Positions 1 to 10,212 of a DNA stretch of 10,212 nucleotides are shown piece by piece. Source of the stretch: a virus (taxonomy: Duplodnaviria; Heunggongvirae; Uroviricota; Caudoviricetes); the IMG/VR virus record IMGVR_UViG_2740892487_000003, one strand, 5' to 3'. Numbering within the stretch: position 1 is the first letter of the stretch; each line of letters opens with the position of its first letter. The notes beneath the pieces were generated by a model that saw only the letters and a program-made list of their open reading frames with translations, had not been told where the DNA came from and did not search any database. Position numbers and translations under genes: made by a program.

Positions 1-1
1 C

Positions 2-157
2 GAATGGGTGCCGGCGACGGGCTATGTAAGCTTCAGCGATGCAGCTCACGCAATAACGGACTATATCGTTGGATATTACAGCGCACTAAGACCGCACGAA
101 TATAATGGTGGGTTACCACCAAACGAATCGGAAAATCGATACTGGAAAAAAATCTAA
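2..157 (+). CDS. IS3-family DDE transposase (OrfB), C-terminal end only; 5' part lies outside the window
   Basis: Frame starting at nt 2 reads ...[33 protein letters not shown] with stop at 155-157. The pattern DYI.G.Y....R.H....G.L.P matches the conserved C-terminus of IS3-family OrfB transposases (compare IS911 FDYIEGFYNRRRRHSALGYLTP, recalled from memory). The exact IS was not identified and the terminal inverted repeat was not located. Confidence 0.5.
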
Positions 158-740
158 CTCGGTGGCCAGTTTTTGTTGACCACTTCATGTGCAGGGAGGC
201 TACAGTGTGCCACTGATTATTACCGCCAGTGACATAACGTCTCATCAGCCCGTCAGTAGAAAAATCAGTGCCCGTCATTTCGCAGGTATTTTTCAGTGGA
301 TGACCGGTATTTGTACTGAAAATATACCGCCATTCAATCCGCTGACAGACGAAGATAACTAACCTGTTATGGTTTTTAAGGGAGAGAGGAATATACCGGC
401 AGACAGTTTGAAACCTCAGCCACTTATTCTTCCTGATCACAGGTAATCATATATGGCAGACTGTAATACAGTCGCTTGTACTGAAAAGTATTCTGTATAA
501 AATATCCGTATTCATATCAGCACAAGGGACCATCAAATCCCTGCAGCACTCCTTACGTCAGTTATCCCGCATCACCCTGTGAGTACAGGATTTTTTATGA
601 GGTTACTTTTTTATTGAATGTATATAAATAATGAATAACCGCGGATTCTGATAATCCCCCCTGCAGGGAGCGGTAAATAGTAAATACATCAGTTAATACC
701 GTTTGTCTTTTTTAACAAAGAAAATAATCCTAGAATAATT

Positions 741-758
741 CCCGGGCATTTGCCCGGG
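741..758 (-). terminator. GC-rich hairpin just downstream of the int stop; possible intrinsic terminator
   Basis: cccgggc-attt-gcccggg (7-bp stem, 4-nt loop) lies 4 nt beyond the int stop codon (763-765 on the minus strand) and is followed on the minus strand by AT-rich sequence (AATTATTCTAGGATTATTTT) rather than a clean U tract. Confidence 0.35.
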
Positions 759-762
759 ATGA

Positions 763-2028
763 TTACTGTTTTAATGGATTATTAATCTTTGCATATTCAA
801 ATGGACTGATAAACCTTTCTCTGTTTACATCCAGAAAATCGGCCCACCACTGTAGCATCAATCGCCGTTCTTCCAGATGCTCTGCTTTATGGATATACGC
901 GGCCCTCACTGAATTTCGCTCCATGTGGCTCATCTGACGTTCAACAGCATCACGAGACCACAAACCTGATTCGACCAATGAACTACAGGCCATTGTTCGA
1001 AAGCCATGACCACAAACCTCTACTTTTGTATCATACCCCATGACCCGTAACGCACTATTTACCGTATTCTCACTCATGGGTTTGTGCGAATCGTGATCAC
1101 CAATAAATATCAAGTCATGGGCCCCATAAAACTGTTTTATCTGCTTTAAAATTGCAAGAGCTTGCGTTGAAAGAGGCACTAGATGCGTTGTACGCATTTT
1201 TGAGCCTCTATGGGAATGTTTCACTCCAGGAATAGGCTCCCGCTCCGGTGGGATAGTCCATATAGACGCTTCGAAATCGATCTCTGACCAACGAGCAAAA
1301 CGCAGCTCACTGGACCGAATAAAGATCAGCAAAGTGAGTTCTATCGCCCATCGGGTTAGCGGCCTACCAGTATAGCTATCTATTTTTGTAAGCAACTCAG
1401 GGATGCGCTTTAATTCAAGCGCGGGACGATGTTGTCGATTACAGGAAGCAACCGCCCCAGCCATCTCTTGTGCCGGGTTATAATCAATTAACCCACTTTG
1501 CACTGCATAGCGCATGATGGCTGTAGTGCGCTGCTGAAGACGAGCGGCCACTTCAAGACGTCCAGACATTTATACGGCCTTAATAGGTGCTAATAAATCT
1601 CGAGTTTTTAACTCAGCGATATTACGTTCACCAAGCGCTGCAAAAAGATTATCTTCAAGACTTTTTAGCACACGATGGGCGTGATCTTCAGACCACTTTT
1701 TATTGGTGCCATGCCACTCAATCGCGACTTCTTTAAAGGTTCGTGCTTTACTCTGTTCAACCTAATCATTTTTCTTTTTGTCTCCCGGATCGACGCCATT
1801 CGCAAGCAGCTTACGCGCCTCGTCACGACGTACTCTGGCATCCGCTAGTGTGATTTCAGGATAAACCCCAAGTGCCAGCATTTTTGCTTTCCCTCATAAC
1901 GGTACTGCAAACGCCAGTACTTAGAACCATTTGGATGGACAAGCAGATGCATACCGCCACCATCAGTCAGCTTATATTGCTTATCCGTTGGCTTGGCTGC
2001 TCTGACTTTGATATCTGTTAATGCCATC
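763..2028 (-). pseudogene. int: P4-type tyrosine integrase, disrupted by one frameshift and two in-frame stop codons
   Basis: Minus-strand ATG at 2028 is preceded by AGGGAGGG and starts MALTDIKVRAAKPTDKQYKLTDGGGMHLLVHPNGSKYWRLQYRYEGKQK, the typical P4-type integrase arm-binding N-terminus. After GKQK the frame changes at a run of 5 A (plus-strand T5 at 1881-1885); the other frame continues MLALGVYPEITLADARVRRDEARKLLANG... Two in-frame stops follow: TAG (plus-strand cta at 1762-1764) and TAA (plus-strand tta at 1570-1572). The 268-aa C-terminal ORF (763..1569) carries the catalytic region (HGFRTMACSS ... RAAYIH). Confidence 0.85.
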
Positions 2029-2175
2029 GTATTCCCTCCCTGTTGGTACAAGCATTATCGAACCGGAAATACCATCATCTGTACCAACATATGTTGGTAG
2101 ATGTACGTTGATATCGGTTGACCTTGAGAGAGTTAATATAGCGGGAAAGATAGATAAACACTGGATTTCAGGCAT

Positions 2176-2204
2176 AAAAAAAAGACCTCAGTTGAGGTCT
2201 ATTT
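2176..2204 (-). terminator. Intrinsic terminator between the att-like core and int (strong on the minus strand, weaker on the plus strand)
   Basis: A8 (2176-2183), stem gacctca (2184-2190), loop gt, stem tgaggtc (2193-2199), then tattt. On the minus strand this is a hairpin followed by U8. Confidence 0.55.
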
Positions 2205-2213
2205 ACATACTTT

Positions 2214-8468: not shown

Positions 8469-8965
8469 TTTACTGCCCGTCGTGTGGACATGTTGCTCAC
8501 ACCCGTCGCGCACATTTCATGGACGATGGCACCAAGATAATGATTGCACAGTGCCGGAATATTTATTGCTCTGCGACATTTGAAGCGAGTGAAAGCTTTT
8601 TCTCTGACTGTAAAGATTCAGGAATGGAATACATTTCAGGCAGACAGAGATACCGCGATTCACTGACGTCAGCCTCCGGCAGTATGAAACGGCCGAAAAG
8701 AATGCTTGTTACCGGATATTGTTGTCGGAGATGTAAAGGCCTTGCACTGTCAAGAACATCGCGGCGTCTCTCTCAGGAAGTTACCGAGCGTTTTTATGTG
8801 TGCACGGATCCGGGCTGTGGTCTGGTGTTTAAAACGCTTCAGACCATCAACCGCTTCATTGTCCGCCCGGTCACACCGGACGAACTGGCAGAACGCCTGC
8901 ATGAAAAACAGGAACTGCCGCCAGTACGGTTAAAAACACAATCATATTCGCTGCGTCTGGAATGA
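8465..8965 (+). CDS. delta: Delta late-gene transcriptional activator (duplicated Ogr-type zinc finger, 166 aa)
   Basis: MIYCPSCGHVAHTRRAH... plus a second module YCCRRCKG...YVCTDPGCG; two Ogr-like Cys4 halves. The 166-aa length matches P4 Delta. Confidence 0.85.
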   Translation: MIYCPSCGHVAHTRRAHFMDDGTKIMIAQCRNIYCSATFEASESFFSDCKDSGMEYISGRQRYRDSLTSASGSMKRPKRMLVTGYCCRRCKGLALSRTSRRLSQEVTERFYVCTDPGCGLVFKTLQTINRFIVRPVTPDELAERLHEKQELPPVRLKTQSYSLRLE

Positions 8966-9038
8966 GGGCTGCCGGTTAACTCCGGCCGTCGCCGCACACC
9001 GTATTTTTATTCTTCAGCATGATGAGAAAGAGATAACG

Positions 9039-9611
9039 ATGGAAAGCACAGCCTTACAGCAGGCCTTTGACACCTGTCAGAATAACAAAGCAGCATGGCT
9101 GCAACGCAAAAATGAGCTGGCAGCGGCCGAACAGGAATACCTGCGGCTTCTGTCAGGAGAAGGCAGAAACGTCAGTCGCCTGGACGAATTACGCAATATT
9201 ATCGAAGTCAGAAAATGGCAGGTGAATCAGGCCGCCGGTCGTTATATTCGTTCGCATGAAGCCGTTCAGCACATCAGCATCCGCGACCGGCTGAATGATT
9301 TTATGCAGCAGCACGGCACAGTACTGGCGGCCGCACTGGCACCGGAGCTGATGGGCTACAGTGAACTGACGGTCATTGCCCGAAACTGTGCCATACAGCG
9401 TGCCACAGATGCCCTGCGTGAAGCCCTCCTGTCCTGGCTTGCGAAGGGTGAAAAAATTAATTATTCCGCACAGGATAGCGACATTTTAACGACCATCGGA
9501 TTCAGGCCTGACGCGGCTTCGGTGGATGACAGCCGTGAAAAATTCACCCCTGCGCAGAACATGATTTTTTCGCGTAAAAGTGCGCAACTGGCATCACATC
9601 AGTCTGTGTAA
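9039..9611 (+). CDS. psu: Polarity suppression protein Psu (190 aa; capsid decoration and Rho antagonist)
   Basis: MESTALQQAFDTCQNNKAAWLQRKNELAAAEQEYLRLL...; 190 aa, third gene of the sid operon, matching P4 Psu from memory. Confidence 0.85.
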   Translation: MESTALQQAFDTCQNNKAAWLQRKNELAAAEQEYLRLLSGEGRNVSRLDELRNIIEVRKWQVNQAAGRYIRSHEAVQHISIRDRLNDFMQQHGTVLAAALAPELMGYSELTVIARNCAIQRATDALREALLSWLAKGEKINYSAQDSDILTTIGFRPDAASVDDSREKFTPAQNMIFSRKSAQLASHQSV

Positions 9612-9640
9612 AACTCCCCGAAAATCTGCCCGTTTTTACT

Positions 9641-9680
9641 GAAAAAAGCCATGCATCGATAAGGTGCATGGCTTTGCATG
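9641..9680 (+). terminator. Hairpin terminator downstream of psu
   Basis: A6 (9641-9646), stem gccatgca (9647-9654), loop tcgataagg, stem tgcatggc (9664-9671), then TTT and a T-rich tail (gcgttttcc). Confidence 0.45.
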
Positions 9681-9775
9681 CGTTTTCCTGCCTCATTTTC
9701 TGCAGACCGCGCCATTCCCGGCGCGGCCTGAGCGTGTCAGTGCAACTGCATTAAAACCGCCCCGCAAAGCGGGCG

Positions 9776-9794
9776 GGCGAGGCGGGGAAAGCAC
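9776..9794. other. cos site: the 19-nt P2/P4 cohesive-end sequence GGCGAGGCGGGGAAAGCAC
   Basis: Exact match at 9776-9794 to the P2/P4 cohesive end as I recall it, followed by TGCGCGC as at the start of the P2 genome. Here it is internal and contiguous, so this is not a virion end. Confidence 0.7.
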
Positions 9795-10027
9795 TGCGCG
9801 CCAATAGCAATGATGCACATTTATTTTCGAACCCTGAGTACATCATAGATGTATGCAGATAAACGATTATGGATCAGTGGCAAATGCATAGAGTAGGTTT
9901 GATGCTCTTACGAGGCATGCAGGTGAACAATACCAACACATAATATATTGAACCTACCCAAAAAAATGAGTAGGCATACTTGTTAAAAGTATATTTCTGA
10001 TCAATGATATAAAAATAAGCACTCTAG

Positions 10028-10212
10028 GGAAGGTGCGAACAAGTCCCTGATATGAGATCATGTTTGTCATCTGGAGCCATGGAACAGGGTTCATCATGAG
10101 TCATCAACTTACCTTCGCCGACAGTGAATTCAGCTGTAAGCGCCGTCAGACCAGAAAAGAGATTTTCTTGTCCCGCATGGAGCAGATTCTGCCATGGCAA
10201 AACATGGTGGAA
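10028..10212 (+). mobile_element. IS5 terminal inverted repeat and 5' region; the element continues past the window edge
   Basis: GGAAGGTGCGAACAAGTCCCTGATATGAGATCATGTTTGTCATCTGGAGCC... matches the IS5 end recalled from memory, and the flanking CTAG (10024-10027) fits the IS5 target preference (C-W-A-R). Confidence 0.9.
10096..10212 (+). CDS. insH: IS5 transposase InsH, N-terminal 39 codons (3'-truncated by the window)
   Basis: [39 protein letters not shown] matches the InsH N-terminus from memory. Confidence 0.9.

Follow-up and report, generated by a model that had tools for sequence, protein, structure and literature searches.

The stretch analyzed here is IMG/VR virus record IMGVR_UViG_2740892487_000003, a DNA of 10,212 nt that is referred to at its full length as the window. 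It carries part of a P4-like satellite, an element closely related to satellite phage P4, together with the DNA on the left of that satellite and the beginning of a cargo region on its right. An original prediction, made from the letters of the window alone, described a P4-like element in the non-integrated gene order, with an integrase gene beside an attP-like site and with insertion sequences (IS) on both sides. It proposed a plasmid-form replicon, a tandem array or an IS-mediated capture. The gene content of the window, the nature of its att site and the arrangement of the same locus in E. coli relatives are reported below.

Sequences and methods

The P4 reference was NC_001609 / X51522, and its annotation was projected onto the window to obtain gene coordinates. 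Megablast against phage records was used for the P4 and IS matches, Pfam for protein domains, Rfam for RNAs, ARAGORN for tRNAs and PADLOC for defence genes. The plasmid check was also a megablast search, with coverage of at least 80% as its criterion. Six E. coli relatives were inspected: GPEC1446, FAM21845, F8, FDAARGOS_1279, GmM062 and E47. The locus labels L002, L003 and L005-L008 refer to these six relatives and L004 refers to K-12.

Gene content of the window

P4 4078-11624 matches window 2214-9775 in a single piece at 97.6% nucleotide identity, and the description of the element as P4-like was thus correct. The satellite proteins other than the open reading frame (ORF) of the cI region are 97-100% identical to their P4 counterparts, and the expected Pfam domains were recovered. 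The core set of P4-like satellites consists of int, psu, delta, sid, alpA/vis, epsilon and alpha (PMC8628076), and the hijacking genes of this set, psu, delta and sid, are all present and intact in the window. Three further observations of the original prediction were borne out. IS elements stand on both sides, with an IS3-family end at 1-187 and IS5 from 10028; cos (9776-9794) is internal, with IS5 starting exactly 233 bp past it; and the gop-beta-cII cargo of P4 is absent, as P4 homology ends at 9801. All genes in the window were identified directly from the DNA, as were the two IS junctions and the hybrid att junction described in the next section. All features are listed in Table 1.

Table 1. 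Features of the window and of the corresponding loci in the E. coli relatives, with their positions.
Feature	Sequence	Position	Strand	Remarks
IS3-family 3' end (ISEc52-like), including the C-terminal end of the transposase	window	1-187	+	inserted into yjgX'
yjgX-type phosphoethanolamine transferase pseudogene, 3' remnant (KpLE2 region)	window	188-446	+	window 185-527 = K-12 yjgX (b4575), 100%
yjgX'-intB spacer	window	447-762		K-12 BLAST pieces 185-527 and 522-2235 abut the IS2K ends (L004 4182-5512)
intB, P4-family tyrosine integrase of the resident leuX island (PR-Y/KpLE2), pseudogene	window	763-2027	-	Pfam Phage_integrase, Phage_int_M
Orphaned leuX intrinsic terminator, hairpin + T8	window	2176-2200	-	terminator-like site 2200-2183; directly after leuX in K-12
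att core (satellite attR; also attL-side core of the island remnant)	window	2214-2232	+	19 nt, TGGTGC-GAAGGCCGGACTC
Two P'-arm arm-type Int repeats (AAGGGGGCATAT, GTGGGGGCACAA)	window	2289-2312	-	exact matches to P4 4151-4174
crr, cis replication region	window	2429-2734	+	from P4 4291-4590; two long direct repeats 2429-2486, 2613-2670
alpha primase-helicase	window	2782-5116	-	99% identical to P4 alpha; frame split
orf106 (DUF5375)	window	5131-5451	-	106/106 vs P4; Pfam DUF5375
orf151	window	5587-6042	-	150/151 vs P4
epsilon, helper derepression	window	6035-6323	-	from P4 7888-8175; +1 T in T-run at 6308
Immunity region	window	6316-6854	-	Ash/Icd-like ORF 6316-6816; Pfam Phage_ASH
CI RNA (C4 family)	window	6568-6655	-	Rfam C4 77.9 bits, above gathering score
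isrK	window	6764-6841	-	Rfam 74.7 bits, above gathering score
c4 target a1b1	window	6802-6854	-	Rfam c4-a1b1 51.5 bits, above gathering score
orf88 / vis, AlpA-type excisionase-regulator	window	6913-7178	-	from P4 8764-9030; -1 in A-run at 7096
P4 ori region	window	7234-7960	+	from P4 9086-9809; type 2 repeats 7324-7353, type 1 repeats 7460-7563
sid, capsid size determination	window	7734-8468	+	241/244 vs P4 Sid
delta, Ogr/Delta transactivator	window	8465-8965	+	162/166 vs P4; Pfam Ogr_Delta
psu, polarity suppression / capsid decoration	window	9039-9611	+	186/190 vs P4; Pfam Psu E = 1e-87
cos, 19-nt cohesive end GGCGAGGCGGGGAAAGCAC	window	9776-9794	+	19/19 = first 19 nt of the linear P4 record
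Start of the variable cos-to-int hotspot, upstream region of RexA/RexB-like cargo	window	9802-10027	+	match to RexA-cargo relatives
IS5 left end	window	10028-10212	+	insH starts 10096; 98.4-98.9% identical to IS5 copies in P1, 434 and others
19-nt core	L002	22030-22048
19-nt core	L003	22214-22232
19-nt core	L005	7031-7049
19-nt core	L006	7030-7048
19-nt core	L007	6665-6683
19-nt core	L008	6356-6374
Cargo of GPEC1446, GmM062 and E47	L002	29843-31248		RexA-like / RexB-like pair (Pfam RexA, PADLOC RexB)
Cargo of FDAARGOS_1279	L006	14749-17223		TIR-NLR protein (PADLOC, full length)
Cargo of F8	L005	14778-16241		PDC-M36A-like protein
Cargo of FAM21845	L003	29987-31327		446-aa protein, no PADLOC match

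The att junction

The att core joins K-12-like DNA on its left to P4-like DNA on its right. Window 185-527 is 100% identical and window 522-2235 is 99.5% identical to the chromosome of E. coli K-12 MG1655, and this stretch spans the yjgX pseudogene, the site of IS2K, intB, the leuX terminator and the last 20 nt of leuX. The 113 bases that adjoin the core on its left reproduce the K-12 leuX-intB spacer base for base, save for one extra A. The attP core of P4 is annotated at 4078-4097, and the first base of the core is the exact start of P4 homology, at window 2214. Homology to K-12 ends at 2235, so that the overlap between the two homologies is confined to the core.

The two arm-type Int repeats of the P' arm follow the core, and no copy of the P-arm arm-type repeats was found left of it (1-2213, about 2.2 kb). 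A K-12 flank from downstream of leuX, followed by the core and by the P' arm, is the signature of a junction between prophage and host. Since the DNA left of the core is K-12 flank with the resident intB, it does not represent the satellite's own P arm and int. Thus, the site is a hybrid of host flank, core and P' arm, which is attR and not attP, and the hybrid junction by itself shows that the element was integrated. In K-12 there is no P4-like element at the leuX site, and the core there lies within an intact leuX gene.

Several parts of the original prediction are to be read in the light of this junction. The order of an integrase gene, core, crr and alpha is indeed contiguous, but intB is not the satellite's own integrase gene; it is a pseudogene, and its intact allele is 59% identical to P4 Int. 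The att-like core is present, but it has 19 of 20 nt and is not of intact length. The non-coding DNA at the left, put at about 600 bp, was correct in part, except that 188-446 is the remnant of the yjgX pseudogene. The left side had been taken for the gop-beta-cII side of P4, but it lies outside the satellite and is DNA from downstream of leuX in K-12. Lastly, the non-integrated attP order does not hold, given the hybrid junction, the arm-type sites on the P' side only and P4 homology that stops at the core.

Chromosomal relatives and plasmid records

At least 80% of the window is held by 61 complete E. coli genomes, and the best 25 listed were all chromosomes of 4.7-5.3 Mb. All six relatives inspected have the same order, in which intB, core, crr and alpha lead on to sid, delta, psu and cos, which are followed by cargo, a tyrosine integrase gene, leuX and ahr. 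The far-end tyrosine integrase gene stands beside leuX in each of the six, with a truncated copy in FAM21845, and in GPEC1446, the only relative compared, this Int is 94% identical to P4 Int. Each relative contains two direct copies of the core at a distance of 10.6-10.8 kb: an intact 20-mer within leuX, after a P4-type P arm, and a 19-nt copy beside alpha. The yjgX' and KpLE2 context is found on the left in five of the six, and the left flank of E47 differs. The original prediction had itself named a second core copy at the far end of a colinear prophage, or an intact tRNA gene abutting the core, as the mark of ordinary integration. The relatives have exactly this second core, in an intact leuX at the far end of a colinear prophage.

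In addition, an integrase gene adjoins the core on its left in ten P4-like loci of IMG/VR, and its product is divergent (44-59% identity to P4 Int). The far end is included in five of these ten, and a P4-type Int (87-95%) was found there in all five. A second direct copy of the core is also present in IMG/VR loci L039, L040, L042, L045 and L052.

A plasmid-form, unintegrated P4-like replicon in attP order, with an IntB-type module swapped in and with IS elements replacing the gop-beta-cII side, would likewise have contiguous int, core, crr and alpha, an internal cos and a window that contains no tRNA, and replication of P4 as a plasmid is established (PMC8628076). However, such a replicon is very improbable for several reasons. 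First, the left flank of the core is K-12 chromosome from beside leuX at 99.5-100% identity over 2 kb, and part of it is a yjgX fragment with no relation to P4. Secondly, the P-arm arm-type sites are absent, and the integrase gene is a pseudogene with two nonsense codons. Third, chromosomes of 4.7-5.3 Mb contain the same junctions, and in these leuX and another int gene stand at the far end. Lastly, none of 72,556 plasmid records covered at least 80% of window 185-10022. The best "plasmid" matches were mislabelled chromosomes of several Mb with partial matches, and a survey of P4-like satellites never found their gene sets on plasmids (PMC8628076).

Integration at leuX

These results point with high confidence to an ordinary chromosomal P4-like satellite integrated at leuX, beside a decayed KpLE2/PR-Y island. 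The window would then consist of the distal, attR-side two thirds of the integrated satellite and the start of an earlier island adjacent to leuX. The leuX gene would already have been followed by the intB island before the satellite arrived, and Int-mediated recombination between the satellite attP and the 3' end of leuX would have displaced the island from the tRNA. The outcome would be the hybrid junction at 2214-2232, made of the leuX terminator/intB flank, the core and the P' arm. Displacement of the island by the satellite accounts for an integrase gene, core, crr and alpha that are adjacent, and circular permutation of the integrated genome relative to the virion accounts for the internal cos.

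By analogy with the relatives, the satellite's own integrase gene and an intact leuX would lie a few kb rightward, past the cos-proximal defence cargo, and the DNA beyond both IS ends in this genome would resemble theirs. In this strain IS5 interrupts the cargo region upstream of a RexA-like gene, and the IS3-family element has inserted separately into yjgX' on the left.

Several points weigh against this explanation. The window contains no tRNA by ARAGORN and a single copy of the core, at 2214-2232, in a search that allowed one error. The satellite's own int and leuX are placed beyond IS5 from the relatives rather than seen in the window, and an IS5-mediated deletion or inversion could have occurred in this strain. 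In addition, alpha, epsilon and vis are out of frame, which may reflect either a defective element or homopolymer errors in the assembly.

The island on the left of the satellite

The IS3-family end is 99.5% identical to the transposon end in Salmonella phage SEN22 and 93-96% identical to other IS3-family copies in L002. The colinear stretch of FAM21845 is annotated as "IS3-like element ISEc52 family transposase" and ends at the equivalent of window 179; the left IS junction (187/188 in yjgX') is also present in the FAM21845 chromosome. An annotation of a phosphoethanolamine transferase pseudogene is found at yjgX' in L002, L003, L005 and L006. In K-12, intB and yjgX are separated by IS2K, at a point equivalent to window 522-527; the window lacks this element.

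The intB gene holds the same place in K-12, beside leuX. The window intB has 99% identity to its intact counterpart in strain F8 (421 aa) and contains TAG at codon 89, TAA at codon 153 and a -1 frameshift at codon 48. The two nonsense substitutions differ in kind from the homopolymer indels described below and are probably real. Inactivation of intB has been independent between lineages, as K-12 has TAG at codon 19 (L004 2676-3941) in place of the window lesions, and F8 and GmM062 retain an intact 421-aa intB.

The insertion of the satellite strands the leuX terminator about 10.7 kb from its tRNA. In lysogens, the P arm of the satellite and the int promoter region now follow leuX.

IntB belongs to the P4 family, at 59% identity to P4 Int, and shares the same leuX core, and tandem as well as pseudogenised P4-like elements have been reported (PMC8628076). 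These observations would fit a tandem array of two P4-like satellites in which the left one has decayed to little beyond its integrase gene. However, no P4 components are found left of intB, where the window has yjgX' and the relatives have nan genes, fec genes and IS elements typical of KpLE2. Thus, the left partner is an island remnant and not a recognisable satellite, and an array of two satellites deserves almost no weight. Of the three options in the original prediction, the tandem array is the nearest, in the sense that two different integrative elements stand in tandem at leuX, but not in the sense of two satellites.

The cos-side cargo and IS5

P4 homology runs to 9801 (25 of 26 positions from the cos start) and then ends. 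The interval between cos and int is a defence hotspot of P4-like satellites (PMC9122126). A match that continues up to 10031 was found only in the relatives with RexA-like cargo (GPEC1446, GmM062 and E47), and the relatives with other cargo (L003, L005 and L006) stop matching at 9801-9805. In the RexA-like relatives the first cargo gene has the Pfam RexA domain and the second was identified by PADLOC as RexB; both genes are outside the window. The cos-to-int cargo differs among near-identical satellites at the same site, as listed in Table 1.

The right end of the window has the terminal sequence of IS5 (GGAAGGTGCGAAC), the N-terminus of insH and a 4-bp YTAR target, with one end of the element inside the window. 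IS5 stands at a CTAG target (10024-10027); in L002 (29827-29845), where the site is uninterrupted, it reads ...CACTCTAG/GCGAAAGAGAACATG. The insertion lies 12 bp before the rexA-like start codon, between the upstream region and the ribosome-binding site, a position from which it could switch the RexAB-like pair off or drive it anew.

The IS ends also bear on a capture or rearrangement mediated by IS elements, for example an IS5 deletion of the cargo, int and attL that would have left a stranded fragment unable to excise. Both ends of the window are inside IS elements, and the leuX region of the relatives is rich in IS. The exact IS5 junction was not found in any collection: no genome among 5,426 complete E. 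coli spans it, and the 48-nt cargo/IS5 sequence had no exact match in species-representative genomes, IMG/VR or JGI metagenome contigs. However, a rearrangement of this kind is improbable. The two IS belong to different families, hence they do not form a composite transposon, and the left IS junction is common to the normal chromosomal locus of FAM21845. IS5 also stands at a standard CTAG target in DNA that otherwise matches the gene order of the relatives, as would be expected of a simple insertion. Even if such a rearrangement had taken place, the attR nature of the junction would be unchanged.

Homopolymer indels

One extra T in the T-run at 4306 splits the alpha gene into two ORFs, 4280-5116 and 2782-4383. 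The C-terminal ORF is identical to P4 alpha at 506 of 511 positions and the N-terminal part at 263 of 269. Pfam identified Zn_Ribbon_Prim, Toprim, D5_N, DUF5906 and Pox_D5 in alpha, and a terminator hairpin for this gene lies at 2757-2774. The frameshifted N-terminal product of alpha is not on record. The lengths of epsilon and vis are not multiples of 3, and epsilon contains internal stops; the DNA of both genes is colinear with P4.

The window and its closest relative (99.6% identical) differ by 17 genuine indels, all of which are ±1 in A or T runs and 15 of which are +1. An 18th gap in this alignment is an edge artefact at the IS5 junction. The indels are located at 1880, 2176, 2262-2279, 2617-2667, 2748, 4306, 6308, 6762, 7096, 7422-7424 and 7573, and 11 of the 14 A/T runs of at least 7 differ from the closest relative. 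They break the frames of alpha (4306), epsilon (6308), vis (7096) and intB (about 1880). These indels look like systematic homopolymer error in sequencing or assembly rather than decay, since a near-uniform +1 bias in runs of at least 7 fits assembly error better than a mismatch-repair mutator background. Given this pattern, the satellite is not claimed to be defective.

The immunity region

Within the satellite, divergence from P4 is greatest in the immunity region, where 122 of 138 residues of the cI-region ORF are identical. This ORF is longer than that of P4 and has an Icd-like annotation in the relatives. The diverged region could represent a different immunity or Icd type.

The 19-nt attR core

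The attR core of the window is 1 nt short, as one C is missing of the 20 nt that form the leuX 3' end and the P4 attP core. All six E. coli relatives share this 19-nt form at the equivalent junction. So do 14 species-representative genomes from further enterobacterial genera, among them Erwinia, Pantoea and Serratia, and 28 of the 29 P4-like loci of IMG/VR. The full 20-nt core was found in laboratory P4 and in two loci (L025 and L033). The 19-nt cores have mutually unrelated host-side flanks. Wherever the leuX copy is visible, it is an intact 20-mer.

The 29 IMG/VR loci look like integrated junctions. A P4-type left arm is absent in all 29, and none has a P4-type Int left of the core. In 27 of the 29, the 260 bp left of the core contain no arm-type motif, and L037 and L057 have a single match there. 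Among the records of the phage collection, an attP region was found only in P4 itself. The literature searched contained no mention of the 19-nt form, and a query with the core sequence matched primer lists only.

Since the host flank varies, the short form of the core most likely belongs to the attP of the elements. Unless the cores have decayed convergently, a tentative reading of these sequences, held at somewhat less than even odds, is that the attP cores of natural P4-like elements are one base different from the tRNA and that the crossover occurs to the left of the missing C, in the terminal GCACCA of leuX. If this is true, the perfect 20-bp core of laboratory P4 would be the exception, and the efficiency of excision might be affected. 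The 1-nt-short attR core is a small regularity and the sole aspect of the locus that is not routine.

Comparison with known elements and significance

The satellite has in common with satellite phage P4 the core, the P' arm, crr, the genes from alpha through psu, and cos, as well as the leuX 3' end as its integration site. It differs from P4 in several respects. In place of the gop-beta-cII cargo, a cargo region of the RexAB-like type with IS5 begins 26 bp past the cos start; the core copy has 19 nt and not 20; homopolymer indels put alpha, epsilon and vis out of frame; and the satellite's own int is outside the window. Compared with the leuX-intB-yjgX region of K-12 (PR-Y / KpLE2), the leuX terminator, intB and yjgX' are the same (window 185-2235). 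However, a satellite is present here, an ISEc52-like IS is found in yjgX instead of IS2K, and the intB lesions are others.

The element is essentially like the P4-like prophages of Enterobacterales (de Sousa & Rocha 2021, PMC8628076; Rousset et al. 2022, PMC9122126). It shares with them a chromosomal location, the order of int, hotspot, cos, psu, delta and sid through to alpha, and variable defence cargo on the cos side. The extra features here are IS5 in the hotspot and an IS-disrupted island alongside. The arrangement is already known and is described in PMC8628076, where cases of an integrase gene next to alpha are rare sets in which a neighbouring mobile element brings its own integrase.

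The locus carries a caution for annotation. Where two elements occupy one tRNA gene, the integrase gene of the neighbour stands beside the replication end of the satellite and mimics an attP map. Such a neighbouring integrase can mislead the automated calling of satellites or plasmids, a case which the survey of P4-like satellites already handles (PMC8628076). Apart from its core, the locus is a routine example of the stacking of elements at leuX, of a RexAB-like P4 defence hotspot interrupted by IS5 and of IS-driven decay.

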